This document shows, piece by piece, positions 1,247 to 64,000 of a stretch of DNA of 64,000 nucleotides. The stretch is from Chloropicon primus. Taxonomy: Eukaryota. The first letter of the stretch is position 1, and the number at the start of each line of letters is the position of its first letter. A program made the translations under genes and the position numbers. The stretch is taken from contig CP060758.1 of NCBI GenBank assembly GCA_023205875.1, forward strand, positions 62,001 through 126,000, in the 5' to 3' direction. Below the pieces are notes generated by a model. It did not search any database. It was not told where the DNA came from and worked only from the letters and a program-made list of their open reading frames with translations.

Positions 1247-1703
1247 TTACGGTGCACACCCCAGGAGGAGGCGGCGAAACTACAGTCGCCTCTCCTCTTG
1301 CTCCGCGAGATAAGGGTTCGGTGAGAGACGTTAAATATACGAGCACAATAAGATCACAATAAGATCGTAACGGCGGAGGACGGCGAGGAGGACGAGAAGA
1401 CCGCGACCAGAGAGAGAGCGATGAGTTACCTCCTGGAATACTACAGCCGCGGGTTGCCGACGAAGAAGAGGAGACTGACGAATACTGGGACGTCATGTGA
1501 AGAAGGGGCTGGTGGCGCCACCCCGGCCGCGGTTCTCCAGGGGGATGGCGCCCAAGGATGGCGGGTGGCGCCCAAGGATTGTGGTGCCAATGTCTCTGTC
1601 TTCACCCACTTGCAGGGCAGCGGGCAGCCGTGCGGCAAGCCTGGACACCAACGCTTGCACAGTGGCCATGGCGACCTCCGCGGGACCTCATAGGGAGCGG
1701 GAG

Positions 1704-2585: not shown

Positions 2586-3858
2586 TCTCGTCCGCGCATG
2601 GAAGAACCAACCCACAGTTCGTGTGCTCGTCGCTGCTTGTTCCATCACGGAAGCGAACTACGACATCATTCTTCGCGAGGAGCACATGGAGTTCCTGGAG
2701 ACCTGCAGGCAATACTGCCACGTTCACTCCGTGAGGGACGAGTTGTTTGAAAACCGTGATGGACACGGCTTGGATGAAGACGCATTGAGCAGAGTCTTTG
2801 AGTACTTTGCGGATGCACTAAAGGGAGAACATGTCGATGTCGTGTTTGAGAATGAATGTTTCCCAGAAACCGCGATCTCTGTGACTCAAAAAGATTTCTT
2901 CAAATGCTCCTGCGCTGATAAATGCTCTCGCAAGTCGTCCAGGACAACAGGCACCGCGAACACCGCTCCAGCACATACTCGATGCCTTTGTGCTTGTGAC
3001 ATGTGCAAGAGGAGTCGTCCTTGCATTCTGGTGGACAGCGACGCCGAGGACGGCGGGGAGAGGGAGAGAGAGCTTCGGAAATTTGATGCCGCTGCATGTC
3101 CCTGTGAACGTTGCAGCAGCAGCCCCTTGAGCACTGGTACGACAAGGAAGACACAGGCCAAGACCAACACGAAAGGGAAGAGGAAGACCAAAGCAAGGGA
3201 GCCGATGAAGGAGTTTCCTCGACTTCCTACTACAGACGGTACTCAAACCCTGCGCTGCATCTGCTGTGATGCTTTTCGTCGCCCTGAGTGCCCCTTGGTC
3301 AAAACAGGAGCTCTGACACCGGTTCCGGGGGAGGAACGTGATCGAGGTGGGCACAATCCCACTTGCCTCCTCTCGAACTGGTGCTGGTACTGCCACCGCT
3401 TCATCTTCAAAAGTGAGTTTAACCACTGGTGCTCGTTCGACTGCTTCTCGAAAGCCACGAGGGTCGTGGACAAGGGGAAGCTTTGGGACAGGGGCATGGA
3501 AATTGGCATCGAACTGAAGAACACGATTGGTTTTTGGTTTTGTGATCCGTGTACAAAGAAATCGGAGTCCGAGAAAACCTTGATCCCAATCAAGAGTTCA
3601 TATGGCTTGAAGTGCTGGAGATGCAAATATGGACATGGCAAAATCGGCAAGGGGTGCGAGGAGAACGCAGGAGGAGGCGGCGTGAACATGCAGCGCGCAA
3701 ACATGCAGCGCGCAAAAATTGGTGAGAACAGAAAGGCCAAAGAGGTAGTGATCCGGCATCCAATGCTCGTCAAAATGATACTCATGATGCTTGAGAACAA
3801 TAGCGAGGTGAATACGGAGCAAGCGAAACCAGGGGAGGAGTCGGAGAAGGAGATCTAA
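2566..3858 (+). CDS. Cys-rich protein, probably the frameshifted continuation of the recombinase ORF
   Basis: 430-aa ORF with many CxC/CxxC clusters (CSCADKC, CLCACDMC, CPCERC, CICCD, CWYCH, CSFDC, CDPC, CWRC). It overlaps the ORF1 end in the +1 frame and begins with GTG rather than ATG. Confidence 0.55.
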   Translation: MEQRASDLVRAWKNQPTVRVLVAACSITEANYDIILREEHMEFLETCRQYCHVHSVRDELFENRDGHGLDEDALSRVFEYFADALKGEHVDVVFENECFPETAISVTQKDFFKCSCADKCSRKSSRTTGTANTAPAHTRCLCACDMCKRSRPCILVDSDAEDGGERERELRKFDAAACPCERCSSSPLSTGTTRKTQAKTNTKGKRKTKAREPMKEFPRLPTTDGTQTLRCICCDAFRRPECPLVKTGALTPVPGEERDRGGHNPTCLLSNWCWYCHRFIFKSEFNHWCSFDCFSKATRVVDKGKLWDRGMEIGIELKNTIGFWFCDPCTKKSESEKTLIPIKSSYGLKCWRCKYGHGKIGKGCEENAGGGGVNMQRANMQRAKIGENRKAKEVVIRHPMLVKMILMMLENNSEVNTEQAKPGEESEKEI

Positions 3859-20993: not shown

Positions 20994-21021
20994 GATGGTT
21001 CTGGCAAGAGCGCGCGGCCAA

Positions 21022-21480
21022 GGACGACGAAGAAGAGAGGAGCGGCCGAGGAGAGAGGGAGCGGGGTGAAGGACGACGAAGAAGAGAGGAGCGGCCGAGG
21101 AGAGAGGGAGCGGGGTGAAGGAGGACGAAGAAGAGAGGAGCGGCCGAGGAGAGAGGGAGCGGGGTGAAGGAGGACGAAGAAGAGAGGAGCGGCCGAGGAG
21201 AGAGGGAGCGGGGTGAAGGACGACGAAGAAGAGAGGAGCGGCCGAGGAGAGAGGGAGCGGGGTGAAGGACGACGAAGAAGAGAGGAGCGGCCGAGGAGAG
21301 AGGGAGCGGGGTGAAGGAGGACGAAGAAGAGAGGAGCGGCCGAGGAGAGAGGGAGCGGGGTGAAGGAGGACGAAGAAGAGAGGAGCGGCCGAGGAGAGAG
21401 GGAGCGGGGTGAAGGAGGACGAAGGAGGGCCAAGGAGAGAGGGAGCGGGGTGAAGGAGGACGAAGGAGGGCGAAGGAGAG
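21022..21480. repeat. 49-bp purine-rich minisatellite, about 9 copies
   Basis: GGGGTGAAGG recurs at 21063, 21112, 21161, 21210, 21259, 21308, 21357 and 21406. Confidence 0.95.
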
Positions 21481-26389: not shown

Positions 26390-27265
26390 GGCGGGGAGTG
26401 GGAACCAGGAGGATGGATGACGAGGACGGACAACCGCACACACCAGCACGCCAGATAATCCAACACGAGGAGGAGAAGCAGCATGATCGTGATCGTCGGT
26501 CGTGATCGTGAGGAGGAGGTTGCGATGATGTGACCACGAGGCGGGGAGTGGGAACCAGGAGGATGGATGACGAGGACGGACAACCGCACACACCAGCACG
26601 CCAGATAATCCAACACGAGGAGGAGAAGCAGCATGATCGTGATCGTCGGTCGTGATCGTGAGGAGGAGGTTGCGATGATGTGACCACGAGGCGGGGAGTG
26701 GGAACCAGGAGGATGGATGACGAGGACGGACAACCGCACACACCAGCACGCCAGATAATCCAACACGAGGAGGAGAAGCAGCATGATCGTGATCGTCGGT
26801 CGTGATCACGAGGAGGAGGTTGCGATGATGTGACCACGAGGCGGGGAGTGGGAACCAGGAGGATGGATGACGAGGACGGACAACCGCACACACCAGCACG
26901 CCAGATAATCCAACACGAGGAGGAGAAGCAGCATGATCGTGATCGTCGGTCGTGATCGTGAGGAGGAGGTTGCGATGATGTGACCACGAGGCGGGGAGTG
27001 GGAACCAGGAGGATGGATGACGAGGACGGACAACCGCACACACCAGCACGCCAGATAATCCAACACGAGGAGGAGAAGCAGCATGATCGTGATCGTCGGT
27101 CGTGATCACGAGGAGGAGGTTGCGATGATGTGACCACGAGGCGGGGAGTGGGAACCAGGAGGATGGATGACGAGGACGGACAACCGCACACACCAGCACG
27201 CCAGATAATCCAACACGAGGAGGAGAAGCAGCATGATCGTGATCGTCGATCTTGATCGTGAGGAG
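26390..27265. repeat. 150-bp tandem repeat, about 5.8 near-identical copies
   Basis: GGAACCAGGAGGATGG at 26401, 26551, 26701, 26851, 27001 and 27151. Confidence 0.97.
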
Positions 27266-27490
27266 GGGAGGAGGGTGGATTGTGGAAAGCGGTCGTGCCC
27301 CTCTATCAGGAGGAGGGCGCGGGATCCACACCCGAACCCAGCAGGGACGGCACACTGGGACGTTTGCTATGATGAGAAAGAGTGATGATGGACTGAGTGG
27401 TGATGGATTTACTTTGGATTTACTCTGGACATTGTGATTCCCATGCGTCATCTCCCTTCGTTGCACAACAGCAAAAAACTTGGTTTCATC

Positions 27491-29641: not shown

Positions 29642-31561
29642 TTACATGATCTTCGTGGGAGGAATCTGCAGGTCCTCGTTGATCTTGCTGTTCAGGTAGT
29701 TCTGCAGCAGCTTTTGAAGCTCGAGGTTCTCCTTCTGAAGGCTCTGCGTCTCGTTCAAGAGAGAGTTCCTCGACTGGAGCTCCTTGTAGTAGTCTTGCAG
29801 GTTGTTCTCCAAGGCGTTCCAGATGCGGAACATCTGGGGGCTGATCACGTTGGCCAGCCTTTCCCAGTAAATCTTGTCCTTGTCCACGTGCTGCCTCTGC
29901 CCGAGCCTGAACCCCTTGGCGCCCACCGAGGCGGCTGCCGATGCTGTGGCCGCGAGATTCGACTGGACGAAGAGCTTCAAGCGCTTCACGACCTCGCTGG
30001 CGTCCACGAGGGCCGAGCTCGTCTCGTCCTTCTGAAGGATCGCCATGAGAGCATCGAACCCGGGGCCGTCCGAAATCTCCAGGGCGTTCAGAATCTTTTT
30101 CGCGGCGTCCTCCTTGGACAGATCCTTCTGACTTGTCGGGGACCCGCCGCTCAAAAACTTTGACTCGCTGATAAGGAGCTCGAGCGTGGCCGTGAACTGA
30201 GGATCCCTCAGCTTCTCGTCGAGCTGCCTCGCCAAGGCATCCTCGTCCGAACTGCCCTTGTCGGACTCCTCCTCCTCCGCAATCTGCTCCTCCTTGGGGG
30301 ACTCGAAAAGCTCCTTGTCCGGGGCCACCCACTTCATGCCAAGCTGCTGCTCGTGAATGATCTTATCTGCTTGCAAGACCTTGTCCACGAACTTGGAGAC
30401 GATCTCCTGGTTCATGTTCCAGACCTCCTCGAACTTCCTCATGTCGGCCGCCTGGAAGTGCTTGTACTTGTTCTGAAGATCCTTGAACTGCTCCGTGATC
30501 CTCTTGTACTCCTCCGTGAGCTTCAGGTTCTCCTCCTGGAACTTCTTGTCGCTGTCCGCGTACCGGTTTTTCAGGTTCGAAAGCAAGTCCCTCTGCCTCG
30601 CAATCTTTCTCTTCTGCTGGTTGATAGTGCTCTGGTTCTCCTGGTCACGCTCCACCAGAACCCTGTAGTTGTACTCCAGCTTCTCCGTGTTCAGCTGGTA
30701 CGTCGCTCGCATCGCCTCCAGGTGCTGCTCCAAGTTCTGGATGTCCGTCTCCAGCCTGATCTTCAGAATGTTGTAGTCCTCGGCGTCAGCCTGCCTGAGC
30801 TTCTCGAGCTGCTGCTGGTACTGCTCCGCCCTCTCCTGCGCCGCCTCCATGTAGTGCTGCTCCATCTGGTTCCTCTTCTCGAACAAGTGAAGCATCTCGC
30901 CCTTGTGGTTCTCCACAATATCCTTCCTCTCCACCAGGAAGGCGTTCTCTATCTCCTCGAGCTCCTCCTGGTACGCCCTCTCCAGCTTCCTGAACTGCCC
31001 GCCCATGTTCGATATCAGCAGGTCAACATCCTCGGCGTACCGCTTCAGGGTCTTGGAATACTCGTCGTCCTTCTGCTTCAGCTCGGTCTTCAACTGGTCC
31101 AGGAGCTCGTCCTTGCTGTCGATCACGCTCTGCGTGGAGTCCTTCACCGCCTGAATCTCCTTGTACAGCTCCTGGGGGACGTTGAACTTGTAGAGCTCCC
31201 CCCAAGAAAGGGAGATGGAAGCATTCTCCCTCGCGCTCTTCTCCGCCTCGCGCAAGAGCTCCGCGCGAAGGGTCTGCCTCTGCTGCTCCTCATCGATTTG
31301 CCTCAGGTTCTCCCTGTTGTCGTTCACGACCCTAATGTCCGTCACCACGTCATTGCCGTCGAGCTTGAGCCTGTAGAGCCTCTTCCTGCTCTCCACTATC
31401 TGCTGCTTCCCTCTGCTCGTCTCCTTCTTCTCAATGTTTTCCTTCTTCGACACGCCTCCTTCTCCTTGGAGCTTGGCGTTGATACGCTCCTGGATGCGCC
31501 TCCGCCTGGCGAGGATGCGCTCCTCCCGCTCCGCTGCCGTTGATATGCGGTCGCCGTCCAT
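29642..31561 (-). CDS. DRC1: Dynein regulatory complex subunit 1 (CCDC164)
   Basis: REERILARRRRI N-terminus, LEQHLEAMRATYQLNTEKLEYNYRVL, ADKIIHEQQLG, LLQNYLNSKINEDLQIPPT. Confidence 0.9.
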   Translation of the reverse strand: MDGDRISTAAEREERILARRRRIQERINAKLQGEGGVSKKENIEKKETSRGKQQIVESRKRLYRLKLDGNDVVTDIRVVNDNRENLRQIDEEQQRQTLRAELLREAEKSARENASISLSWGELYKFNVPQELYKEIQAVKDSTQSVIDSKDELLDQLKTELKQKDDEYSKTLKRYAEDVDLLISNMGGQFRKLERAYQEELEEIENAFLVERKDIVENHKGEMLHLFEKRNQMEQHYMEAAQERAEQYQQQLEKLRQADAEDYNILKIRLETDIQNLEQHLEAMRATYQLNTEKLEYNYRVLVERDQENQSTINQQKRKIARQRDLLSNLKNRYADSDKKFQEENLKLTEEYKRITEQFKDLQNKYKHFQAADMRKFEEVWNMNQEIVSKFVDKVLQADKIIHEQQLGMKWVAPDKELFESPKEEQIAEEEESDKGSSDEDALARQLDEKLRDPQFTATLELLISESKFLSGGSPTSQKDLSKEDAAKKILNALEISDGPGFDALMAILQKDETSSALVDASEVVKRLKLFVQSNLAATASAAASVGAKGFRLGQRQHVDKDKIYWERLANVISPQMFRIWNALENNLQDYYKELQSRNSLLNETQSLQKENLELQKLLQNYLNSKINEDLQIPPTKIM

Positions 31562-40672: not shown

Positions 40673-42274
40673 TCACACGTCGGCAGGAGATTCCCACTCG
40701 TCGATTTCCGACTCAGCAGGGTCTTCTACCGGGTTGCGGCGCGTTGACATCTGCCGCTTTCGCCTAGGCGCGCGAGAAGTCTGCTCGTCCCTCTTCCTCT
40801 TCGCATCCTCCTCTCGCTTCTGATTCAGCTTCCTTTGTTTATCTCGTTCCGCTCGTCCTCGCTCCCGTTCCAACCTTTTCTTCTGAGATTCGAGGGCCGT
40901 GGTTACCTTCTTGAGCCTCTTGGTCAGTCCATCTGTATTGGGCCAATCATCATCTGCCTTGGACTCTTCCACTGGTTCTTTTCCCTCCGCAGACCCATTC
41001 TTCGCATCTTGCTCCTCCTTCTCGCGCTTCTTTCGAGTGTGGACGCAAGACACGCATTGGCAGCCCTCTTTGTGCCTAAACTGCTCCCTCTTCTTCAAGT
41101 TGGCCTCCACGTTGGTCTCATCACGGGTAAAAGCCTCTGCGTACTCGGGGTCGTTCCTGATCTTATCGAACGCCCCGTAGCCGTGCTTGTAGACGCCAAA
41201 GAGCAAGGCCTTGTCCGCTGCCGTGGACCACCATTCAATTGGAGGCGAGCTGTCCGCCATGGTGGCCATCAGGTCTTCGAACTGTTCGATTTTGGACTCA
41301 TCCATACCCATCAGAGCAGCTTCATTGATCAAATCCATAAGCCTCAGCTTTCTCAGCCACGACAACCCAAGCTTGTCTATTTTCGGCCAAGGGTTCGAGA
41401 GCTCCGGGATCGCTATGGCGCCTTCCTCCTTGTACTCACTAATCTTGCGGATAGCGAAGGCGTCCTCCTTAGGCACGGGGCCGGGGCGAGCTGCTCCTGC
41501 GCCCTTCTTCCCCTCCCCCGTCGCCCCCTCCCCGTCTTCCCCCTCCTTCTCTTGCTTCTCCTTCTCCTTTTTCAACTTGGCCTCCCTCAGCTGATCCTGA
41601 GACTCCTTGAGAGCCACGAGCAAGGTGTAGGTCAAGTTGCGTATGTCGTGCACGCCGTGAACCAGCTGCGTGTGCTCCTCCAGGAGCTGCTTCTGGATCC
41701 TCCCCCACTCTCCCATCCCGTACGTCAGGAGGATCTTCCTCAGCTTGTCCTGCTCGTACTTCCTCCACTCCTTGCCAGTGCTCTCCGGAATGTCCTTCTG
41801 CAAAGACCAGCCCACCTTCTTGTTGCAGGGCCTGTTCTTCGTCCCCAGCTCCACCCCGTGCCCACTGGTGCCGTTAGGATACAAGTTCTTCGCCTTGGCC
41901 TCCTTCTTCGCCATCCTTTGCCTCTGCCTGCTCCTCCTCTTCAAATCATCACGCCACTTCCGCTGGTCCACTTGAATCCTCTCCAGCTTGCTCTTCGTTT
42001 GCCTCTCCAGCAGTTCCGCCCACAACTCGATCCCACGTTTCCGTCGCGAAGGGTCACTCCCCAACCCACGCGAAGAAGACAAAACCCTTTCGTAGACATC
42101 TTCCAGCTTCTCCGTCTCTATGGCGGACACGGACACGCCCTCCGTTCCGTCCACCTCCTCCCACAGCCCCTCCGTCATCCTCCCTCCCCTCAAGAAGCTT
42201 CGGCTTCGCTTCAACGACGACCGCCACACCCCAACGCCTCGACTCCCTTCCGCTTCCTCCAAATCCCCATCCAT
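40673..42274 (-). CDS. CHD-remodeler C-terminal (SANT/SLIDE-like) region without ATPase
   Basis: W..YEQDKLRKILLTYGMGEWGRI, WWSTAADKALLFGVYKHGYGAFDKIRNDP, WPNTDGLTKRLKK resemble CHD6-9-type C-terminal motifs. Start uncertain. Confidence 0.7.
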   Translation of the reverse strand: MDGDLEEAEGSRGVGVWRSSLKRSRSFLRGGRMTEGLWEEVDGTEGVSVSAIETEKLEDVYERVLSSSRGLGSDPSRRKRGIELWAELLERQTKSKLERIQVDQRKWRDDLKRRSRQRQRMAKKEAKAKNLYPNGTSGHGVELGTKNRPCNKKVGWSLQKDIPESTGKEWRKYEQDKLRKILLTYGMGEWGRIQKQLLEEHTQLVHGVHDIRNLTYTLLVALKESQDQLREAKLKKEKEKQEKEGEDGEGATGEGKKGAGAARPGPVPKEDAFAIRKISEYKEEGAIAIPELSNPWPKIDKLGLSWLRKLRLMDLINEAALMGMDESKIEQFEDLMATMADSSPPIEWWSTAADKALLFGVYKHGYGAFDKIRNDPEYAEAFTRDETNVEANLKKREQFRHKEGCQCVSCVHTRKKREKEEQDAKNGSAEGKEPVEESKADDDWPNTDGLTKRLKKVTTALESQKKRLERERGRAERDKQRKLNQKREEDAKRKRDEQTSRAPRRKRQMSTRRNPVEDPAESEIDEWESPADV

Positions 42275-42294
42275 CAGTGGAGGAGGCCAGGCAT

Positions 42295-42325
<31 letters not shown>

Positions 42326-42677
42326 TGTGTCAGAGTGTGAGAGGGTGAGGGTGGTGGAGGACAATACAATGTCTGCATCCTTCACCACCATTCATCATGA
42401 CTACGCTTCCGCTTCCTCCAAATCCCCATCCCCATCGAGGATCAGAGGAGGATGAGGCATCATCCATCATCAGTGGAGGAGGCCAGGCATGAGAGAGAGA
42501 AAGAGAGAGAGAGACTGTGTGTCAGAGTGTGAGAGGATGAGGGTGGTGGAGGACAATACAATGTCTGCATCCTTCACCACCATTCATCATGACTACGCTT
42601 CCGCTTCCTCCAAATCCCCATCCCCATCGAGGATCAGAGGAGGATGAGGCATCATCCATCAGTGGAGGAGGCCAGGC

Positions 42678-42713
<36 letters not shown>

Positions 42714-42860
42714 GTGTCAGAGTGTGAGAGGGTGAGGGTGGTGGAGGACAATACAATGTCTGCATCCTTCACCACCATTCATCATGACTACGCTTCCGCT
42801 TCCTCCAAATCCTCATCCCCATCGAGGATCAGATCAGCATCATCCATCATCAGTGGATGA
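42247..42860. repeat. ~190-bp tandem repeat (about 3.2 copies) with embedded (GA)n of variable length
   Basis: ACAATACAATGTCTGCATCC at about 42361, 42553 and 42749. Confidence 0.92.
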
Positions 42861-45565: not shown

Positions 45566-48500
45566 TTAGCTTCCACTGACCCAGTTCCACAAATTAGCGC
45601 CCGCTGTCTTCAGTGCCTCGTCAATCTGCACATCCTCTCCGTCTTCATCGGAGTCTTCCACTGCTTCGGCCGCCATCTTATCGAACAGCGAGCCGATATC
45701 CTTGGGACCTTCTTTTTGAGACTTCTCCTCGATGGACGGTCTTCTTGCTGGTTTCTCACTGATCTCCCACCCCTCCTCGGCGCCGCTGTTCCACGAATCA
45801 TCCAGAATCACGGCAGCTTCAGCAGCAGTATCTGGTGGACCGGAAATCGTTGGAGCACTCTGCACGCCGCCCAAGAGCTTCTTCTTCGCTTCTTCCAATT
45901 CCATTGACAATTTTGAATTCTCGTGCTTTGAAAGTGAGAGCTCCTTCTCTTTTGCTTCCAGCTTCTCCTGGATGTTCTTGCCTTTCACTACTGCTGCCTT
46001 CAGCTTGTGCATGGTGTCTTTTTGCTTCTGTTGCAACTTTGAATAGTCCTCGCCCGGCTCTGCTGACGCGGGTGGAGGACTTTGCTGGGAGAGCTCTTCG
46101 ATCTGTTGTTCTTTCTCCTTCAAAGTGGCGGCTGCCTTATCAAATTCTTCCTGGATTGCGCCAAGCCTGGTTTCCAGTTCTTCTGTGTGCAAGAGCTTCT
46201 CCTTCATGCCTTCCTCCAACTTCAAGAATTCATCTTGCATCTCTTGAGCTTTCAGATTATCTTCCTTTTCCTTGTGCAGGTTTGTTTCCAGTTGCGATAT
46301 GTATTCCTTCTGCAAGCCCATCTCCTGCTTCAGCTCCCTCAGTTCAGATGAAGTCTGCGAGTCATTCTTTGCTCCGTTCGCCTGCAAGTCGTTGATTTGC
46401 TCTTGCTTCACATTAATCTCTCGCATCAGCTGTTCCATCTCACTTTGAAGCATTCTTTCCGAGTTCAGCTTGTTCTGTTGTGCCTCTTCCACCTTGGTCT
46501 GAAGCTTACTTATGTCACCGTCCTTCGAAGCAACCGCACTTTGCAACAGCTCTATTTCGTGTGCTTTCTCCTCCAGCTCAGACCTCGCTCCCTCATTCTG
46601 GTCTGCTCTTTCCCTTTCAATATGGAGTCTGCTCTCGAGCTCCGCAATCAATTGCTGTTGCTCAACGGCCTCATCCTCTGCGATCAATTCCCGTTGCTCT
46701 TTCATCTCGAGCGCGACGAGCTTCTCCTTCAGCTCAGCCCCAGCAGCCTCGCTCTGGTTCGCCCGTTCCCTCTCCTCCTCGAGCTTGCCCTGCAGATCAG
46801 CTATCATTTGGCCTTGCTCAGAAGCATCATCCGCCTCAGCATTCGCTCGCTCGCTCAACTGTTGCTCCAGCTCCGCAACCTTGGCACGCAGACCCTCCGC
46901 GTCGGAAGAAGAAGCGCTCCTCATGTTCTCAACCTCGGCGGCCAAGCTCTCTACTTGCTGGGCGAGATCGACCTCTCTCTGCTCCAGCGATGACACCTTG
47001 GCCTCAGCCTCGTCTCTCTGGCTCAAGGACAACGCAGATGCGGCTTCCAGCTTCGTGTTCTCGTCCTCCATCTCGCTTATCTGCTCCTGCAGTGCAGCCA
47101 GCTCGCTGAGCTTCTCCTTCAGCTCAGCCCCAGCAGCCTCGCTCTGGTTCGCCCGTTCCCTCTCCCCCTCGAGCTTGCCCTGCAGATCAGCTATCATTTG
47201 GCCTTGCTCAGAAGCATCATCCGCCTCAGCATTCGCTCGCTCGCTCAACTGTTGCTCCAGCTCCGCAACCTTGGCACGCAGACCCTCCGCGTCGGAAGAA
47301 GAAGCGCTCCTCATGTTCTCAACCTCGGCGGCCAAGCTCTCTACTTGCTGGGCGAGATCGACCTCTCTCTGCTCCAGCGATGACACCTTGGCCTCAGCCT
47401 CGTCTCTCTGGCTCAAGGACAACGCAGATGCGGCTTCCAGCTTCGTGTTCTCGTCCTCCATCTCGCTTATCTGCTCCTGCAGTGCAGCCAGCTCGCTGAG
47501 CGTCTCCTTCAGCTCAGCCCCAGCAGCCTCGCTCTGGTTCGCCCGTTCCCTCTCCTCCTCGAGCTTGCCCTGCAGATCAGCTATCATTTGGCCTTGCTCA
47601 GAAGCATCATCCGCCTCAGCATTCGCTCGCTCGCTCAACTGTTGCTCCAGCTCCGCAACCTTGGCACGCAGACCCTCCGCGTCGGAAGAAGAAGCGCTCC
47701 TCATGTTCTCAACCTCGGCGGCCAAGCTCTCTACTTGCTGGGCGAGATCGACCTCTCTCTGCTCCAGCGATGACACCTTGGCCTCAGCCTCGTCTCTCTG
47801 GCTCAAGGACAACGCAGATGCGGCTTCCAGCTTCGTGTTCTCGTCCTCCATCTCGCTTATCTGCTCCTGCAGTGCAGCCAGCTCGCTGAGCGTCTCCTTC
47901 AGCTCAGCCCCAGCAGCCTCGCTCTGGTTCGCCCGTTCCCTCTCCTCCTCGAGCTTGCCCTGCAGATCAGCTATCATTTGGCTCTGTTCGGCGGCATTGG
48001 ACTCTGCAGCATCGTCATCAACGGCACCTCCTTTCTCTTCATACCCCTTCAACCTTTTCTGGGCTTCTTGGAACTGCTGTTCAATGGCCTTTCCCTTCTT
48101 CACGGCAGCCCTCAGCTTCGTCATTGTTCCAGATTCTTTGCTTTTCAAAGCTTTGATTTCCTCCTCCAACTCTTCCAGCACCTTTGCGTCTGCCCCTGAC
48201 CCCTTTCCTTCCTCCTTCTCTTCCTCCAAAGATTTGATGAGGTTGGCCTTCTCCTCGATCTCACAGGCTTGGCTCGCGATCTCACTGTGCAGCGCCTCCT
48301 TCTCCTCTTCCGTCTTCTTCCCAATTTGCTCCATCCGCTTCTTGAGCACCTGGACCTGCTTCTCTGCCTTCCTCTTTTGAAGCTCGGCCGTTCTCACCTT
48401 CTTGCTCGCGTTCCCTGCCTCTTCCTCGCTCGCGTTCCTTGCAAGGATAACAGCCTGCAGCTGCTCGGACTGCAAAGTCTCCCTCCCCTTCATCTCCTCG

Positions 48501-53240: not shown

Positions 53241-53582
53241 ATGATGGTTTCCTTGCGTTCCCCGTGCGCACTGCCCTCGTCCTTGTTCCCGGCACACTCC
53301 GAGTACTCGGTTCCAAGATTTCGTACAAAGCAGAGCAGCAGCAGGTTCGTCGTCCTCGACTGCAAGTCCCCGGAGAAGAAGAGAGAGATTGAGGACTACA
53401 ACGAGGCGTTGAGGGTAATGTTTGCGGAGGCATCTCTTAAGCTGAGCGACAAGGAACAATGCATTGTGAAGAGAGAGTACCTCGAGGAGGTCGGGCTCTG
53501 CAAAGCTCCTCGTCCTCCGTCGTCGAAGAGAACACGAAGCAAGACGGCCCCTTCCATCGTCAAGGTCAAGCAGGAAGAGTGA
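53241..53582 (+). CDS. Small hypothetical protein with transit-peptide-like N-terminus
   Basis: Ser/Arg-rich N-terminus followed by a charged domain; fits the gap between neighbours. Confidence 0.45.
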   Translation: MMVSLRSPCALPSSLFPAHSEYSVPRFRTKQSSSRFVVLDCKSPEKKREIEDYNEALRVMFAEASLKLSDKEQCIVKREYLEEVGLCKAPRPPSSKRTRSKTAPSIVKVKQEE

Positions 53583-53723
53583 GGAGGGAGAGTTTAGGCG
53601 AGCAAGCAAGCTGTATAAGCAAAATGTAGTTACAAATATCATCACTCTTTAGTCTCCCCGTGTGCCATGTTTTGCCTTCTCTCATTATTATCCTTGGGTC
53701 TGGTAGAATCCTTGCATTCTACT

Positions 53724-55121
53724 TTAGTTGGGTCTCATGTTGAGGGCCTTGACGACAGCGTTGCTGAAGTTTTGCCTGATGGCGTGAATTCCAGAGCCTT
53801 GGTCGGTCGGGTAGACCCTGTTCGTGAGCAGCACCAAGTAAACTCCGTTGATGGGATCGCCGCAGACCATCGTGCCCGTGTAACCCAGGTGCATGAAGGT
53901 CTTGGAGGAGAAATTCCCGCAAGAAAGATTCCAACCCTCGTCGTGGACTGTCGGATCATTCGTGTTCCATCCCAGGGCTCTGCTTGAGATTGCGTTGTCT
54001 CTCTCTGTCGTGAAGGTCTCGATGGTCGTCTTATTGAGGAAGACGTAGGGCGAAGGCAAACCGCTCATGTTGATTCCAGGAAACAGGAGCGTGTGCATCA
54101 AAGCAGCGAGGTCGCTTGCAGTCGCGAAGGTACCCGCGTGGCCAGAAATTCCACCGAGCATCTCAGCATTGCCATCCTCCACCCTGCCTTGGAGCGTTAC
54201 GTTAAGGCCTTCCGCAGCCGGGATCACCGTTGGCGCTGTGTGAGACCTTGCGTTCACAGGAGGCCTGTACGCAGGGAAGGACATCGCTTGGCCGCTCGCT
54301 CGCTCTACCTGAGGCAAAATCACAGTCCTGAGGAAGCCTTCGAATTCGCACTGCAACTTCACCGGGTAGATTCCGTCCATCTCCATGCACTCTCGCATCA
54401 AGTTGTCGCCCTCGACCAAGTGGTTGTCGTGTATCACTTTGCCTGCCACGAACATCATCGTGATCATGCTCAAGTCGCTGTACACGTACCGAGTCCCCGG
54501 CGGAGCATCCACAGTTTGAGTCATGAGAGAATCAAAAATTCTGTGGGTGCAGGCGAACGACTGCTCCAGTGGAAGAGGCGCGCCATCGCAGCCGAACTTT
54601 GGGTCCCAGTAACAGGGCGATGGGTCTGGCGGGAACCCGGCCTGGTGGAGCATGCAATCCTCCACCGTGATGTTTCCCTTCCCTCCCTGAGCGAACTCCG
54701 GCCCGAGGAGGTCCGGGCTGGACACAAGGGTGTCCAAACTCAGCAGGCCCTTCTCGTACAGCCAGGCCACCACCGAGGTCGTTCCCACGACTTTCGTCAG
54801 GCTCGCGAGGTCAAACAAGGTGTGGCTCCCGATTTCTTCGTTCGTGTGCGAGTACGGAGGAACCTTTCCGTACGTCATCCGGCCGACGTAGTGCTCGAAA
54901 ACTATGCCACCGTACCCCTTCTCGCTTCTCGTGCCCACAACGGCAGCCGCTCCCGGATACACCCGAGACTCCACACCCCCCTCCAGCACCCTAATTGCCT
55001 CTTCCCAAGTGTCGTCGCGGTCTCGCCGCGCCTCCCTCGCCCCTGCACTTGGGCCCCATAGTGCCCCTAGCACCACCACGACCAGCAACCACCCCGAGCA
55101 CACCCGTCCACCCCGTTTCAT
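53724..55121 (-). CDS. Secreted beta-lactamase-family serine hydrolase
   Basis: Signal peptide; FDLASLTK (SxxK), YVYSD (Y motif), GHAG.F, HLGYTGT, LLTNRVYP. Confidence 0.9.
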   Translation of the reverse strand: MKRGGRVCSGWLLVVVVLGALWGPSAGAREARRDRDDTWEEAIRVLEGGVESRVYPGAAAVVGTRSEKGYGGIVFEHYVGRMTYGKVPPYSHTNEEIGSHTLFDLASLTKVVGTTSVVAWLYEKGLLSLDTLVSSPDLLGPEFAQGGKGNITVEDCMLHQAGFPPDPSPCYWDPKFGCDGAPLPLEQSFACTHRIFDSLMTQTVDAPPGTRYVYSDLSMITMMFVAGKVIHDNHLVEGDNLMRECMEMDGIYPVKLQCEFEGFLRTVILPQVERASGQAMSFPAYRPPVNARSHTAPTVIPAAEGLNVTLQGRVEDGNAEMLGGISGHAGTFATASDLAALMHTLLFPGINMSGLPSPYVFLNKTTIETFTTERDNAISSRALGWNTNDPTVHDEGWNLSCGNFSSKTFMHLGYTGTMVCGDPINGVYLVLLTNRVYPTDQGSGIHAIRQNFSNAVVKALNMRPN

Positions 55122-55545
55122 GTTTACGCCAAGCCAACAACTAGCGAGGCCTGCTTCTTCCCAAACCAGCAATCACCCAATCGCACCGGCACTCACCTTC
55201 CTTCCGGTACAACCCAAGGACGGTGGACCCAGGCAAGTCTATCCACCCTTGTTCCCCTTGCCTTGCTCGGGACCAACGCCACCACCCCAGCAAAGTCAAA
55301 GCAGTGAAGCACTTGTCCCTGAAACCCGATGGAATGACGATACCGAATCGAAGGCCTCCCCCGCTTGCCCTCTGCGATACCTTCCCTTCCCTGCCTCTGC
55401 AACCTGCAACCGCCTTGGTTTTGGACTCCTCTGGCTTGCCTCCCTCCCTTGTCCTTGGGATGAACGCACTTTTTTGGAACTTCAAAATCGCGCGGTCGGA
55501 AGCGGAGGAGGGCGAGGAGAGGAGAGGAGAGGAGAGGAGAGGAGG

Positions 55546-57116: not shown

Positions 57117-58325
57117 TCACTTTCCAGGTCCAGGGAAGGCAATATCCACTGCGGTGAGTGGCAAGGCGCCACCTCCCAATCCTCGAAGAGCATCCTGCAC
57201 GCCGAACAGGGCGGGCTCCTTGCTGCTTCTTCCGGCTCCAATGCCAGCGCTGGCGCCAACAAAGGTAGGGGTGGAAAGAGCCACGTCGTTACCGGCGGCA
57301 ACGCGGAAAGGCCTCGACTCGCTGATCGTAGCTCCATCAAAGTAAGAGTTGGCGGTTCCGACAGGCTCGTAGTGGAGGTTGGTCATGTGGCCCTCCGTGG
57401 CAGACTCCGCAAAAGTCTGCTTGGGGCTGCTTTGCCTCACGCCAGTCCTCGCCTGAGTTCCAGAGTTGCCGCTGGCCTTGCCGAACAATCCCGAGGACGC
57501 CCAGGTGGCGGACTTGGTCAGAGACCAGTCCGTGCCATTCCCCCCTCTCTGCCTGAACCCAATGGCACCGTTGGCGGAGGTGATCTCGGCATGTGGTCCC
57601 TTGGCCTCGATGTGAGATCCACCAGTAGCACTGGCAAACCTCCTGCTTCTTGTCTCCTCCTCCTCGCCCACATCAAGGAGTCTCCTTCCGTGTCCAGGGA
57701 AGGCGACATCCACTGCGGCGAGTGGCAAGACTCCACCTCCAAAGGCTCGAAGAGCATCCTGCGTGCCGAACAGGGCGGGCTCCGTCAGCGCCACTCCGGC
57801 TCCAATGCCAGCACTGGCGCCAGCGAAGAGAGGGGTCGCAAGGGCAACGTCGTTACCGGCGGCAACATCGAGAGGCCTTTCCAAGCTCGATCCAGATCCA
57901 TCAAAGTAAGAGTTGGCCGTGCTGTGAGGCTCGTAGTGGAAGTTGCTCATGTGAGCGTCGGTGGCAGACTCTCCGTGGGTGCTGATGTCGTCACCCTTGC
58001 CGGTGTCCGCGTACGTTCCTGAGTTACCATTGGCCTCGCCGTACAATCCGGAGGACACATAGGTGGCGGACTTAGTCAGAGACCAATCGGTCTTGTCCTT
58101 CTCTCTGTACGCGATGGCTGCGTTTCCGGAAGAGACGTGGGCATTGGGCCCCTTGGAAGAGACGTGGGATCCACCAGTAGCCCTGGCGAACTGTCTCGAG
58201 GGTGGGATGCCGGTTCCCTCGTTGTAGAACGAGTTGCTGCAAGCCGCGGAGCTGACCGCGAGTGCGGCCAATGCAAGGTACATGGCCTTCTTGCTCATAT
58301 TGTTGTTGTTGTTGTTCGAGTTCAT
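57117..58325 (-). CDS. Secreted two-domain polyprotein, copy 1
   Basis: MNSN..MSKKAMYLALAALAVSSAAC signal, two homologous ~165-aa G/A/S/T-rich domains, linker GHGRRLLDVGEEEETRSRR, terminal PGK. Confidence 0.8.
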   Translation of the reverse strand: MNSNNNNNNMSKKAMYLALAALAVSSAACSNSFYNEGTGIPPSRQFARATGGSHVSSKGPNAHVSSGNAAIAYREKDKTDWSLTKSATYVSSGLYGEANGNSGTYADTGKGDDISTHGESATDAHMSNFHYEPHSTANSYFDGSGSSLERPLDVAAGNDVALATPLFAGASAGIGAGVALTEPALFGTQDALRAFGGGVLPLAAVDVAFPGHGRRLLDVGEEEETRSRRFASATGGSHIEAKGPHAEITSANGAIGFRQRGGNGTDWSLTKSATWASSGLFGKASGNSGTQARTGVRQSSPKQTFAESATEGHMTNLHYEPVGTANSYFDGATISESRPFRVAAGNDVALSTPTFVGASAGIGAGRSSKEPALFGVQDALRGLGGGALPLTAVDIAFPGPGK

Positions 58326-58417
58326 GGTTGACTGGTGAGTGATCGTGGGTGTTGCTGGAAGCAAGCAGTTGGCGACAGCCTGATCAAAAATGTGATCCCG
58401 TTTTGGGCCGAAGGCCC

Positions 58418-58425
58418 TATTTATA
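58418..58425 (-). promoter_or_regulatory. TATA box (TATAAATA) of array genes; also at 60401, 61820 and 63802
   Basis: About 93 bp upstream of the ATG in every unit. Confidence 0.7.
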
Positions 58426-59099
58426 GGTCGGCCGGGCCGGAGCGGAGGGAGGCGAAAACCGGTTTGCCCCGTGGCAATCGAGTGGACGGCGCTGTCCTCT
58501 CCGTTTTGTCCACCCCTTTTGCCGTTGGGATCGGCGTCATTGCCACACTTTGGTCGCCAGGCGGCCATTTTTGCCAGAGCTCGAGGCAAAATCCTCGTGT
58601 TTTTGCCGTTATTTATCCATGGACGCGTACACTAAAAATGAGATGTGAGAGATCGGGCGCTTGGAGGAGGACGGGACCGTGCGTGGTTTTGCTCCCAGGG
58701 CTTGACCAAGACGGCAACCCCTCACGATGGCGATCCCCTTGTCCCTCACGGGTAGGATCTCCCTCCCCTTTGGTGCGATGCTTGCCCCTTTCAAGCTAGA
58801 ATTTCCGGACACCAAGCAAGCAGGAGGAAAGAAAGTGGACGAGGGAGAGAGCAGTGGAGGCAAAAGGTAATTGAAATATATTGTACAAGCTTTTATTTGC
58901 TTCAATGGATCATACAAGATGAAGCAAAACATGCAACATGCAACATGCAGAGGGGAGCAAGAATCAGGGGGGGTGCGGAGAGAACATGCAGAGGCCAAGG
59001 TGTACGTTGGTGTCCACCTTGACCCAAAGAAAAATCAAAGCGAGAGCTCAGAAAGCACAAAGAATGCAAGCAGGCAGGCGATCAAAGTCTTTCTTTGCC

Positions 59100-60308
59100 T
59101 CACTTTCCAGGTCCAGGGAAGGCAATATCCACTGCGGTGAGTGGCAAGGCGCCACCTCCCAATCCTCGAAGAGCATCCTGCACGCCGAACAGGGCGGGCT
59201 CCTTGCTGCTTCTTCCGGCTCCAATGCCAGCGCTGGCGCCAACAAAGGTAGGGGTGGAAAGAGCCACGTCGTTACCGGCGGCAACGCGGAAAGGCCTCGA
59301 CTCGCTGATCGTAGCTCCATCAAAGTAAGAGTTGGCGGTTCCGACAGGCTCGTAGTGGAGGTTGGTCATGTGGCCCTCCGTGGCAGACTCCGCAAAAGTC
59401 TGCTTGGGGCTGCTTTGCCTCACGCCAGTCCTCGCCTGAGTTCCAGAGTTGCCGCTGGCCTTGCCGAACAATCCCGAGGACGCCCAGGTGGCGGACTTGG
59501 TCAGAGACCAGTCCGTGCCATTCCCCCCTCTCTGCCTGAACCCAATGGCACCGTTGGCGGAGGTGATCTCGGCATGTGGTCCCTTGGCCTCGATGTGAGA
59601 TCCACCAGTAGCACTGGCAAACCTCCTGCTTCTTGTCTCCTCCTCCTCGCCCACATCAAGGAGTCTCCTTCCGTGTCCAGGGAAGGCGACATCCACTGCG
59701 GCGAGTGGCAAGACTCCACCTCCAAAGGCTCGAAGAGCATCCTGCGTGCCGAACAGGGCGGGCTCCGTCAGCGCCACTCCGGCTCCAATGCCAGCACTGG
59801 CGCCAGCGAAGAGAGGGGTCGCAAGGGCAACGTCGTTACCGGCGGCAACATCGAGAGGCCTTTCCAAGCTCGATCCAGATCCATCAAAGTAAGAGTTGGC
59901 CGTGCTGTGAGGCTCGTAGTGGAAGTTGCTCATGTGAGCGTCGGTGGCAGACTCTCCGTGGGTGCTGATGTCGTCACCCTTGCCGGTGTCCGCGTACGTT
60001 CCTGAGTTACCATTGGCCTCGCCGTACAATCCGGAGGACACATAGGTGGCGGACTTAGCCAGAGACCAATCGGTCTTGTCCTTCTCTCTGTACGCGATGG
60101 CTGCGTTTCCGGAAGAGACGTGGGCATTGGGCCCCTTGGAAGAGACGTGGGATCCACCAGTAGCCCTGGCGAACTGTCTCGAGGGTGGGATGCCGGTTCC
60201 CTCGTTGTAGAACGAGTTGCTGCAAGCCGCGGAGCTGACCGCGAGTGCGGCCAATGCAAGGTACATGGCCTTCTTGCTCATATTGTTGTTGTTGTTGTTC
60301 GAGTTCAT
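59100..60308 (-). CDS. Secreted two-domain polyprotein, copy 2
   Basis: Same as copy 1 except WSLAKS for WSLTKS. Confidence 0.8.
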   Translation of the reverse strand: MNSNNNNNNMSKKAMYLALAALAVSSAACSNSFYNEGTGIPPSRQFARATGGSHVSSKGPNAHVSSGNAAIAYREKDKTDWSLAKSATYVSSGLYGEANGNSGTYADTGKGDDISTHGESATDAHMSNFHYEPHSTANSYFDGSGSSLERPLDVAAGNDVALATPLFAGASAGIGAGVALTEPALFGTQDALRAFGGGVLPLAAVDVAFPGHGRRLLDVGEEEETRSRRFASATGGSHIEAKGPHAEITSANGAIGFRQRGGNGTDWSLTKSATWASSGLFGKASGNSGTQARTGVRQSSPKQTFAESATEGHMTNLHYEPVGTANSYFDGATISESRPFRVAAGNDVALSTPTFVGASAGIGAGRSSKEPALFGVQDALRGLGGGALPLTAVDIAFPGPGK

Positions 60309-61082
60309 GGTTGACTGGTGAGTGATCGTGGGTGTTGCTGGAAGCAAGCAGTTGGCGACAGCCTGATCAAAAATGTGATCCCGTTTTGGGCCGAAGGCCC
60401 TATTTATAGGTCGGCCGGGCCGGAGCGGAGGGAGGCGAAAACCGGTTTGCCCCGTGGCAATCGAGTGGACGGCGCTGTCCTCTCCGTTTTGTCCACCCCT
60501 TTTGCCGTTGGGATCGGCGTCATTGCCACACTTTGGTCGCCAGGCGGCCATTTTTGCCAGAGCTCGAGGCAAAATCCTCGTGTTTTTGCCGTTATTTATC
60601 CATGGACGCGTACACTAAAAATGAGATGTGAGAGATCGGGCGCTTGGAGGAGGACGGGACCGTGCGTGGTTTTGCTCCCAGGGCTTGACCAAGACGGCAA
60701 CCCCTCACGATGGCGATCCCCTTGTCCCTCACGGGTAGGATCTCCCTCCCCTTTGGTGCGATGCTTGCCCCTTTCAAGCTAGAATTTCCCGACACCAAGC
60801 AAGCAGGAGGAAAGAAAGTGGACGAGGGAGAGAGCAGTGGAGGCAAAAGGTAATTGAAATATATTGTACAAGCTTTTATTTGCTTCAATGGATCATACAA
60901 GATGAAGCAAAACATGCAACATGCAACATGCAGAGGGGAACAAGAATCAGGGGGGGTGCGGAGAGAACATGCAGAGGCCAAGGTGTACGTTGGTGTCCAC
61001 CTTGACCCAAAGAAAAATCAAAGCGAGAGCTCAGAAAGCACAAAGACTGCAAGCAGGCAGGCGATCAAAATCTTTCTTTGCC

Positions 61083-61727
61083 TCACTTTCCAGGTCCAGG
61101 GAAGGCGACATCCACTGCGGCGAGTGGCAAGACTCCACCTCCAAAGGCTCGAAGAGCATCCTGCGTGCCGAACAGGGCAGGCTCCGTCAGCGCCACTCCG
61201 GCTCCAATGCCAGCACTGGCGCCAGCGAAGAGAGGGGTCGCAAGGGCAACGTCGTTACCGGCGGCAACATCGAGAGGCCTTTCCAAGCTCGATCCAGATC
61301 CATCAAAGTAAGAGTTGGCCGTGCTGTGAGGCTCGTAGTGGAAGTTGCTCATGTGAGCGTCGGTGGCAGACTCTCCGTGGGTGCTGATGTCGTCACCCTT
61401 GCCGGTGTCCGCGTACGTTCCTGAGTTACCATTGGCCTCGCCGTACAATCCGGAGGACGTCCAGGTGGCGGACTTGGTCAGAGACCAATCGGTCTTGTCC
61501 TTCTCTCTGTACGCGATGGCTGCGTTTCCGGAAGAGACGTGGGCATTGGGCCCCTTGGAAGAGACGTGGGATCCACCAGTAGCCCTGCCGAACTGTCTCA
61601 AGGGTGGGATGCCGGTTCCCTCGTTGTAGAACGAGTTGCTGCAAGCCGCGGAGCTGACCGCGAGTGCGGCCAATGCAAGGTACATGGCCTTCTTGCTCAT
61701 ATTGTTGTTGTTGTTGTTCGAGTTCAT
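61083..61727 (-). CDS. Single-domain chimeric variant of the polyprotein, copy 3
   Basis: Domain A body ending directly in domain B's FPGPGK*; 564 bp shorter than the other copies. Confidence 0.78.
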   Translation of the reverse strand: MNSNNNNNNMSKKAMYLALAALAVSSAACSNSFYNEGTGIPPLRQFGRATGGSHVSSKGPNAHVSSGNAAIAYREKDKTDWSLTKSATWTSSGLYGEANGNSGTYADTGKGDDISTHGESATDAHMSNFHYEPHSTANSYFDGSGSSLERPLDVAAGNDVALATPLFAGASAGIGAGVALTEPALFGTQDALRAFGGGVLPLAAVDVAFPGPGK

Positions 61728-62501
61728 GGTTGACTGGTGAGTGATCGTGGGTGTTGCTGGAAGCAAGCAGTTGGCGACAGCCTGATCAAAAATGTGATCC
61801 CGTTTTGGGCCGAAGGCCCTATTTATAGGTCGGCCGGGCCGGAGCGGAGGGAGGCGAAAACCGGTTTGCCCCGTGGCAATCGAGTGGACGGCGCTGTCCT
61901 CTCCGTTTTGTCCACCCCTTTTGCCGTTGGGATCGGCGTCATTGCCACACTTTGGTCGCCAGGCGGCCATTTTTGCCAGAGCTCGAGGCAAAATCCTCGT
62001 GTTTTTGCCGTTATTTATCCATGGACGCGTACACTAAAAATGAGATGTGAGAGATCGGGCGCTTGGAGGAGGACGGGACCGTGCGTGGTTTTGCTCCCAG
62101 GGCTTGACCAAGACGGCAACCCCTCACGATGGCGATCCCCTTGTCCCTCACGGGTAGGATCTCCCTCCCCTTTGGTGCGATGCTTGCCCCTTTCAAGCTA
62201 GAATTTCCGGACACCAAGCAAGCAGGAGGAAAGAAAGTGGACGAGGGAGAGAGCAGTGGAGGCAAAAGGTAATTGAAATATATTGTACAAGCTTTTATTT
62301 GCTTCAATGGATCATACAAGATGAAGCAAAACATGCAACATGCAACATGCAGAGGGGAGCAAGAATCAGGGGGGGTGCGGAGAGAACATGCAGAGGCCAA
62401 GGTGTACGTTGGTGTCCACCTTGACCCAAAGAAAAATCAAAGCGAGAGCTCAGAAAGCACAAAGAATGCAAGCAGGCAGGCGATCAAAGTCTTTCTTTGC
62501 C

Positions 62502-63709
62502 TCACTTTCCAGGTCCAGGGAAGGCAATATCCACTGCGGTGAGTGGCAAGGCGCCACCTCCCAATCCTCGAAGAGCATCCTGCACGCCGAACAGGGCGGG
62601 CTCCTTGCTGCTTCTTCCGGCTCCAATGCCAGCGCTGGCGCCAACAAAGGTAGGGGTGGAAAGAGCCACGTCGTTACCGGCGGCAACGCGGAAAGGCCTC
62701 GACTCGCTGATCGTAGCTCCATCAAAGTAAGAGTTGGCGGTTCCGACAGGCTCGTAGTGGAGGTTGGTCATGTGGCCCTCCGTGGCAGACTCCGCAAAAG
62801 TCTGCTTGGGGCTGCTTTGCCTCACGCCAGTCCTCGCCTGAGTTCCAGAGTTGCCGCTGGCCTTGCCGAACAATCCCGAGGACGCCCAGGTGGCGGACTT
62901 GGTCAGAGACCAGTCCGTGCCATTCCCCCTCTCTGCCTGAACCCAATGGCACCGTTGGCGGAGGTGATCTCGGCATGTGGTCCCTTGGCCTCGATGTGAG
63001 ATCCACCAGTAGCACTGGCAAACCTCCTGCTTCTTGTCTCCTCCTCCTCGCCCACATCAAGGAGTCTCCTTCCGTGTCCAGGGAAGGCGACATCCACTGC
63101 GGCGAGTGGCAAGACTCCACCTCCAAAGGCTCGAAGAGCATCCTGCGTGCCGAACAGGGCGGGCTCCGTCAGCGCCACTCCGGCTCCAATGCCAGCACTG
63201 GCGCCAGCGAAGAGAGGGGTCGCAAGGGCAACGTCGTTACCGGCGGCAACATCGAGAGGCCTTTCCAAGCTCGATCCAGATCCATCAAAGTAAGAGTTGG
63301 CCGTGCTGTGAGGCTCGTAGTGGAAGTTGCTCATGTGAGCGTCGGTGGCAGACTCTCCGTGGGTGCTGATGTCGTCACCCTTGCCGGTGTCCGCGTACGT
63401 TCCTGAGTTACCATTGGCCTCGCCGTACAATCCGGAGGACACATAGGTGGCGGACTTAGCCAGAGACCAATCGGTCTTGTCCTTCTCTCTGTACGCGATG
63501 GCTGCGTTTCCGGAAGAGACGTGGGCATTGGGCCCCTTGGAAGAGACGTGGGATCCACCAGTAGCCCTGGCGAACTGTCTCGAGGGTGGGATGCCGGTTC
63601 CCTCGTTGTAGAACGAGTTGCTGCAAGCCGCGGAGCTGACCGCGAGTGCGGCCAATGCAAGGTACATGGCCTTCTTGCTCATATTGTTGTTGTTGTTGTT
63701 CGAGTTCAT
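62502..63709 (-). pseudogene. Polyprotein copy 4 with a 1-bp frameshift in domain B (or homopolymer sequencing error)
   Basis: The C-run at about 62925 has 5 C against 6 C in copies 1 and 2, splitting the ORF. Confidence 0.6.
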
Positions 63710-64000
63710 GGTTGACTGGTGAGTGATCGTGGGTGTTGCTGGAAGCAAGCAGTTGGCGACAGCCTGATCAAAAATGTGATCCCGTTTTGGGCCGAAGGCC
63801 CTATTTATAGGTCGGCCGGGCCGGAGCGGAGGGAGGCGAAAACCGGTTTGCCCCGTGGCAATCGAGTGGACGGCGCTGTCCTCTCCGTTTTGTCCACCCC
63901 TTTGCCGTTGGGATCGGCGTCATTGCCACACTTTGGTCGCCAGGCGGCCATTTTTGCCAGAGCTCGAGGCAAAATCCTCGTGTTTTTGCCGTTATTTATC

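Follow-up and report, generated by a model that had tools for sequence, protein, structure and literature searches.

Close to the right-hand end of the 64,000-nucleotide (nt) stretch of Chloropicon primus DNA analysed here (positions 62,001 to 126,000 of contig CP060758.1, assembly GCA_023205875.1; hereafter the window), which is gene-dense eukaryotic DNA, four head-to-tail units lie on the minus strand at 57117-63709. Here, we describe these units, the precursor proteins that they encode and the relatives of these proteins. Judged by sequence, the array protein belongs to an undescribed family built on a domain of about 170 amino acids (aa), with one or two copies per precursor, and a terminal glycine signal across the family strongly supports C-terminal amidation. 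The array comprises the following features, all on the minus strand:

57117-58325, minus: copy 1, coding sequence of the 402-aa two-domain precursor P0001
58236-58325, minus: N-terminus of copy 1, aa 1-30, predicted signal peptide (from hydropathy; like the N-termini of relatives)
58296-58298, minus: second ATG of copy 1
57687-58190, minus: domain A of copy 1, aa 46-213, ending in Gly213
57675-57686, minus: RRLL, aa 214-217, S1P-type motif
57651-57674, minus: acidic spacer DVGEEEET, variable among relatives
57639-57650, minus: RSRR, aa 226-229, furin-type motif
57120-57638, minus: domain B of copy 1, aa 230-402, ending in Gly-Lys-stop
58418-58425, minus: TATAAATA box of copy 1
59100-60308, minus: copy 2, coding sequence, 402 aa (P0003), differing from copy 1 in one residue
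60401-60408, minus: TATAAATA box of copy 2
61083-61727, minus: copy 3, coding sequence of the 214-aa single-domain form P0002
61820-61827, minus: TATAAATA box of copy 3
62502-63709, minus: copy 4, out of frame in domain B, with domain A and the linker intact
63802-63809, minus: TATAAATA box of copy 4; the repeated upstream spacer continues to the end of the window

The tandem array and its expression

The precursor of copies 1 and 2 runs from a poly-Asn stretch and KK through a hydrophobic stretch into domain A, followed by RRLL, DVGEEEET, RSRR, domain B and the stop codon. Domain A ends in AFPGH-G-RRLL and domain B in AFPGP-G-K-stop, and the two domains, which are separated by a 16-aa linker, share 64% identity (110/172). 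At the N-terminus, a basic n-region precedes a hydrophobic stretch at about aa 14-30 with a Kyte-Doolittle peak of 2.29 (hydropathy only), and similar N-termini are found in five relatives (P0005, P0015, P0017, P0021 and P0027), which agrees with the signal peptide noted in a preliminary description of this DNA. When the mature protein was shuffled 20,000 times, 1.5% of the shuffles had a terminal G[KR], 0.13% had G[KR][KR]LL and 5.8% had RX[KR]R.

The array is real. Copies 1 and 2 repeat with a period of 1,983 bp and differ in 5 of 1,983 letters, and the TATAAATA box recurs in every unit about 93-100 nt 5' of the ATG. The preliminary description had named a strong TATA box, at least four tandem copies and, for each precursor, a fixed layout of domain A, Gly, RR, acidic spacer, RSRR, domain B, Gly and Lys. 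The box is indeed present in each of the four units, but the units are not equivalent, as copy 3 has a single domain and copy 4 is frameshifted, and the layout accordingly holds for copies 1 and 2, that is for the intact two-domain precursors that make up two of the four copies in the window.

Copy 3 consists of the body of domain A fused to the end of domain B, the 564 nt from one to the other of the matching domain ends having been deleted, and a contig from run X6, which stems from another study, spans exactly this deletion joint with the letters of copy 3. Within its domain A, a short patch at about 61459-61476 matches domain B of the other copies and is likely a gene-conversion tract. In copy 4, the C-run at 62925-62929 is one base shorter than in copies 1 and 2, and the frame is lost early in domain B. 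This frameshift may be real or an assembly error; a gap-free contig of run X2 spans the C-run, but simple variants are collapsed at that place. The public model P0004 equals copy 4 minus a 119-nt GT..AG piece (62937-63055), is not derivable from copies 1 and 2 and, from these letters, reads as a gene model skirting the frameshift, while the 268-aa product of copy 4 had no match in the protein collection. A 483-aa open reading frame (ORF) starting from an in-frame upstream ATG at 58568 was rejected, as that ATG lies 5' of the TATA box and the ORF does not occur in the protein collection.

The DNA run X2 also contains the head-to-tail joint, yet X2 may be the source DNA and its joint is therefore not independent support for the array; its depth over the unit, about 2.4-4.4 times that of the flanks, fits several copies and gives no copy number. 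The edge of the repeat unit falls at about 56892 and 58875, some 220 nt past the stop codon, and adjoins TGTA(T/C) words, which we take to resemble a polyadenylation signal. Two published assemblies give the size of the orthogroup (OG0000176) that includes the named C. primus match to the array protein and which the supplementary tables list with five genes in one strain and three in another and as exclusive to C. primus in comparison with C. roscoffensis (PMC12301720 supplement). The neighbours of this orthogroup in the tables, a β-lactamase and a NIPA transporter, are also those of the array in the window.

According to the gene table of the C. primus genome study, the mean depth of vegetative RNA-seq is 4.3, 3.2 and 9.9 for the three genes and 2.0 for the paralogue, whereas the NIPA neighbour has 12.6 and eIF3A 79 (PMC6731263 supplement). 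The high dosage expected in the preliminary description thus finds no support in this table, with a vegetative depth of 3-10. According to the same study, C. primus has an almost complete set of flagellar genes as well as silent genes of meiosis and of the scale type (PMC6731263), and a stage-specific role of the array protein is plausible. Contigs from runs X1 and X6, which are RNA by our guess, cover the gene and the spacer 5' of the TATA box and end at 58806, but this end adjoins a copy-specific letter and was rejected as a transcript start. The same contigs do not cover 53824-55403, whereas the DNA run X2 does.

Domain family and processing signals

Single-sequence searches returned only relatives at 87-100% identity, with P0005-P0013 as the 87% relative, whereas a profile of the domain added the C. 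primus paralogue P0014 and P0015 at about 45% identity. Searched with a profile, 1.84 billion representatives yielded 18 matches at E<=0.001, which include single-domain secreted forms, further two-domain forms and Cys-rich ephrin-like stalk forms capped by the domain (P0019, P0020 and P0024, with the domain at the end). Pfam held no family for P0001 or P0002 and only one weak row (E 0.06) among four aligned family members, the best match among PDB sequences had E 0.085 with alignment A3 and nothing appeared at E<=10 with alignment A6, the ESM Atlas gave no usable match for copy 3, and metagenome and viral contigs yielded no confirmed locus. The preliminary description had likewise not recognised the family. 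The annotated N-terminus of P0014 (HOP50_08g53440 / A3770_08p53140) is without a hydrophobic stretch, and its gene model may be without its first exon. A tree of 20 domains, from which the fragments P0022, P0023, P0024, P0026 and P0030 and the N-terminal part of P0028 were excluded, is mostly unresolved, and we claim no order of events; domains A and B of P0001/P0005 group at 93/93 and those of P0015 at 84/74, neither grouping starred. No internal repeat above the shuffled level was found in the domain.

R[RK]LL is found at the domain junction of all seven two-domain members, in six of them immediately behind a G and in the seventh as GRR-N-RKLL, and it recurs just after the signal peptide in two single-domain members, P0021 and P0027, in one of them as Q-GRKLL. 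A furin-type RX[KR]R is kept at the junction in two of the seven (P0001 and P0005); P0014 has KAKR there, and P0015, P0025, P0028 and P0031 have none. As read from these junctions, the family-wide signal is S1P-type, not furin-type, and cleavage between the domains is likely. The preliminary description had named both motifs: RRLL stands as an S1P-type site, whereas RSRR, although present in the array copies, is a feature of few members. RRLL is described as the optimal S1P site, cut after the second Leu (PMC8310232), so that S1P alone would not expose the Gly of domain A, and amidation of this domain is less sure than that of domain B.

The processing enzymes can be traced in the published C. 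primus gene table, where each is a label only: PAM (A3770_19p83380), S1P (A3770_04p31680, best Chlamydomonas match Cre14.g628800) and a carboxypeptidase D-like protein (A3770_01p06200, best match CPZ3) (PMC6731263 supplement). Among the 6,460 gene-table rows listed, no row had a furin/VLE1-type best match (VLE1, Cre04.g213400 or Cre16.g685250), and one carried a weak secondary PCSK5 label. The suggestion that the genome be checked for PAM and kexin-like proteases has thus found a PAM label without a matching furin-type label in these rows. In plants, known S1P substrates include the pro-regions of RALF and of pectin-methylesterase. Like the substrates of SKI-1/S1P (MBTPS1), with their R-X-aliphatic-Z motif (PMC8310232), nine family members carry R[RK]LL at a boundary, and S1P is annotated in the species; unlike in those substrates, the motif stands directly behind a Gly in six of the seven junctions, and the host also has PAM. 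Our literature search, which left subscription journals mostly outside, found no paper linking Chloropicon with amidation, none on peptidylglycine amidation in prasinophytes, none on GRRLL/GRKLL in algal secreted proteins among the titles listed and, by title, none on S1P-linked amidation.

Three of the 18 matches (P0022, P0024 and P0026) end before the second half of the domain and were excluded from the count of endings. Among the 15 that reach the domain end, 12 finish in G, GK, GR or GRK, and the proportion is 12/18 over all matches, 9/12 without the three query members and 10/13 with near-duplicates merged. As background, such endings are found in 73 of the 771 Chlamydomonas secreted proteins of a published list, about 9.5% (PMC6313938), and in 5 of the 42 other long ORFs of the window (8/45 including the three family ORFs). 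The tail from the last conserved strand to the Gly is 4-13 residues long and has no shared last residue, which suggests that the terminal Gly tracks the processing point, not the core, and the ending switches only among forms that are equivalent for carboxypeptidase and PAM. The residue that would be amidated is His, Pro or Glu within one species and Gln, Asp or Val in close relatives, next to a conserved core. This variability argues against a short hormone-like peptide, and with a size of about 170 aa and tails that differ in length and last residue, the product does not resemble a short conserved amidated peptide. Of the points raised in the preliminary description, the conservation of the amidation motif in homologues is upheld by the 12/15 count, that of amidation of both domains stands better for the terminal Gly than for domain A, and a pheromone of the short amidated-peptide type finds no conserved amidated residue.

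Chlamydomonas amidates large folded proteins, namely domain 3 of proGATI and VLE1 (PMC9351486). Like proGATI (Cre03.g204500), Cre12.g487700, Cre17.g722300 and VLE1, the Chloropicon precursor is a green-algal secreted proprotein, with a large folded domain freed at a basic site, a C-terminal Gly-basic signal and gene clusters; unlike proGATI, which has three unlike domains and Pro-rich linkers, it is a 40-kDa protein with two homologous Cys-free domains, and the cut site that its family conserves is the S1P-type R[RK]LL instead of a furin-type one. Amidation is predicted for the Chloropicon family, whereas for the Chlamydomonas substrates it is documented by mass spectrometry (PMC9351486, PMC6919629). 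The family has no Chlamydomonas match at 1e-10 in the published table, proGATI itself not having been aligned. The family is processed like proGATI, so far as the signals predict, but is not a member of the proGATI family.

Predicted fold and possible function

The domain has a mass of about 17 kDa, consists of about 30% Gly and Ala and contains no Cys. Its AlphaFold model, based on 20 aligned rows, reached a mean predicted local distance difference test (pLDDT) score of 78.3 and a predicted template modelling score of 0.75, while an earlier alignment of four rows had given a pLDDT of 28.6. In the model, strands extend as far as residue 138, there is a single helix, and the Gly lies in an unstructured tail; residues 156-173 have a pLDDT below 50, which suggests that the C-terminal tail is free. 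Since the strand breaks at 18-21, 51-54 and 89-90 align in antiparallel register and insertions and deletions (indels) fall mostly in three loops (34-37, 67-75 and 102-110), the modelled domain reads as three long strands with kinks, together with a Gly/Ala hairpin and a helix. The faces of the long strands are small (G/A/S), not hydrophobic, and a reading as an outer-membrane barrel was rejected because the strands are without a hydrophobic face. In the hairpin (111-138) residues alternate on one strand only, with 57% large hydrophobic residues on one face of the first strand and mostly Gly/Ala/Ser on the second strand.

Foldseek of the model, a check proposed in the preliminary description, gave no match at E<=0.001 in PDB or BFVD. 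The best VIA-align row was the pore-state gasdermin RCD-1 (Z 5.0, root-mean-square deviation (rmsd) 2.9, 74 aligned residues), followed by complement C5b8 (Z 4.8), a Trichoplax gasdermin (4.5) and PlyB (4.2). As the best row for unmatched models typically has a Z of 7-8 with this tool, these values lie below the usual background, and the rows describe long-strand geometry only. The strands superpose on the pore β-hairpins of gasdermin/MACPF structures (8jyz, 8jyw, 8b0f and 9do6) over 73-76 residues with an rmsd of 2.2-3.0, but with an identity of 7-12%, a Z of at most 5.0 and no globular core, which speaks of a common arrangement without implying homology.

We consider the chances evenly balanced that the array encodes a secreted precursor that is cut at an S1P-type site and amidated by PAM, and whose long-β domain assembles outside the cell. 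The individual steps would differ in their strength. The precursor would very probably enter the secretory pathway. An interdomain cut at or next to R[RK]LL, with RSRR trimming the spacer only in this sub-lineage, is a strong prediction, as is the removal of the last Lys by a carboxypeptidase followed by conversion of the Gly to an amide by PAM on domain B and the single-domain forms. Whether domain A would be amidated too, by a dibasic cut at GRR|LL or after trimming of Leu-Leu-Arg-Arg behind the S1P cut, could go either way. The working unit is probably the folded domain and not a short peptide, with the amide capping an exposed flexible tail against exopeptidases or removing a charge. Long strands with small-residue faces would need partners, and from this we infer that the modelled domain may self-assemble outside the cell. 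The function inferred for the matured protein would be that of a fibre, tube or coat element, into which the domain might oligomerise and which might be made mainly outside vegetative growth, with chances a little short of even. In the stalk fusions (P0019, P0020 and P0024) the domain might serve as a co-assembling module. The design resembles that of the trichocyst matrix proteins of Paramecium, multigene secreted precursors proteolysed to small assembling proteins, as an analogy only; trichocyst matrix proteins are helical and acidic with two products per precursor, and the Chloropicon domain is predicted to be all-β.

Several observations weigh against this interpretation. Cleavage, amidation and secretion are all predictions at the sequence level, and PAM, S1P and carboxypeptidase D are known here as annotation labels from the published table, not as sequences. 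Three of the 15 matches end otherwise (GP, GGD and HP), and the binomial values for the enrichment of endings, 1e-7 to 1e-10, ignore shared descent and, with related family rows, overstate the case for amidation. In P0021, G-RKLL directly follows the signal peptide and leaves almost nothing there to amidate, so the internal G may belong to a general cleavage motif, and G-basic-basic sites are common, occurring in 331 of the 771 listed Chlamydomonas proteins (PMC6313938) and in 28% of shuffles. The long-strand reading is derived from DSSP, indels and weak structural alignments rather than from the coordinates of the model, and the 18-21 break is hit by an indel in 4 of 14 rows. A low depth in vegetative cells would be expected of a cryptic-stage protein but just as well of a minor or stress-induced one, and reads may split among near-identical copies.

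Among the alternatives, the one that survives best, although we regard it as unlikely, is that the matured amidated domains attack membranes in defence, as a new small β-pore-former against grazers, bacteria or competitors, in which the Gly/Ala hairpin or the long strands would insert after cleavage. It draws on the pore-forming proteins in the best VIA-align rows and on the hydrophobic face of the hairpin, as well as on a gene number that varies by strain in the supplementary tables (PMC12301720) and on the common amidation of toxic peptides (PMC6529398). Against it stand the Z values below background, which reflect long flat strands, the empty Foldseek searches, the small faces of the long strands and the mostly Gly/Ala/Ser second strand of the hairpin.

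Somewhat less probable is a mating or chemotactic signal similar to proGATI, with the amidated C-terminus as ligand, which a gamete stage not yet seen would release from its cilia or ectosomes. The shared logic of a large folded domain, basic-site cleavage, C-terminal amide and gene clusters (PMC6919629, PMC9351486), the meiosis and flagellar genes that the species retains (PMC6731263) and an orthogroup exclusive to C. primus in the tables of PMC12301720, as a species-specific signal might be, would fit such a role. However, the amidated residue and the tail differ between domains and paralogues in one species while the core is conserved, the published table lists no BLAST match in Chlamydomonas, Gonium or Volvox at 1e-10 (PMC6731263), and long Cys-rich stalks precede the domain in some members.

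It is still less probable, in our judgement, that cleavage of the precursor at R[RK]LL does take place while amidation is incidental or limited, with the Gly being structural or a relic in an ordinary lineage-specific wall or matrix protein. The three matches without the signal, a domain composition of 14-16% Gly and the G before RKLL in P0021 are in line with this, but the endings switch among forms that carboxypeptidase and PAM would treat alike, and they do so after tails of variable length that are modelled as unstructured. We hold at the same low level a far-reaching extension of the assembly model, a self-assembling β-ribbon family with non-canonical amidation (S1P would cut after RRLL, and PAM would act once Leu-Leu-Arg-Arg had been trimmed), which would form giant β-barrel tubes or pores for a never-observed flagellate or gamete stage and in which the Cys-rich stalk fusions would co-assemble as display subunits. 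A misassembly, or recent duplicates without function, could be suggested by the more than 99% identity of the copies, the frameshift of copy 4 and low expression, but either reading of the array is very improbable and already largely refuted by the X2 joint (with the reservation given above), the copy-3 joint in X6, the five and three genes in two published assemblies (PMC12301720) and intact relatives at 87%, about 45% and down to about 25% identity.

Few algal substrates of PAM are known so far, all of them Chlamydomonas proteins detected by mass spectrometry, and the question of which PAM substrates matter has been called open (PMC6529398). The family represents comparative evidence, from a different green-algal class, for selection on the amidation of a large folded domain, and whether amidation can be fed by an S1P-type G-R[RK]LL site could be tested on it directly. 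Further, it has a predicted fold without a match in the libraries searched and could be used as a marker in the search for a life stage not yet seen in this picoalga, which is abundant in the ocean; should amidation fail the test, the family would be an ordinary lineage-specific secreted family.

Other features of the window

Next to the array, a β-lactamase-family gene (PF00144) at 53724-55121 on the minus strand likely has a signal peptide, and among 13 algae the published table lists a match to it only in Klebsormidium (PMC6731263). At 53357-53600, the contigs of runs X1, X6 and X2 reach depths in the thousands and have numerous loose ends; this segment, which overlaps a 113-aa ORF without a Pfam match, is likely the end of a dispersed multi-copy element. 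Near the other end of the window, an ORF at 1545-2585 (plus strand) has a weak match to a resolvase N-terminal domain (E 0.003, below the cut-off) and adjoins a Cys-rich 390-aa ORF without a Pfam match at 2686-3858 (plus strand); the two could presumably be an IS607-type transposase pair. Published C. primus tables list IS605-type transposases (PMC12301720 supplement). The window also contains a gene for an NYD-SP28 (DRC1-type) flagellar protein at 29642-31561 (minus strand) and a tubulin-tyrosine-ligase-family gene at 4860-6683 (plus strand), which agree with the flagellar set described in the genome study, while known cells are without flagella. Tandem repeats are located at 21020-21465 (49 bp x 9.3), 26390-27266 (150 bp x 5.8), 42268-42833 (192 bp x 2.9) and, within a coiled-coil gene, 46718-47982 (390 bp x 3.2).

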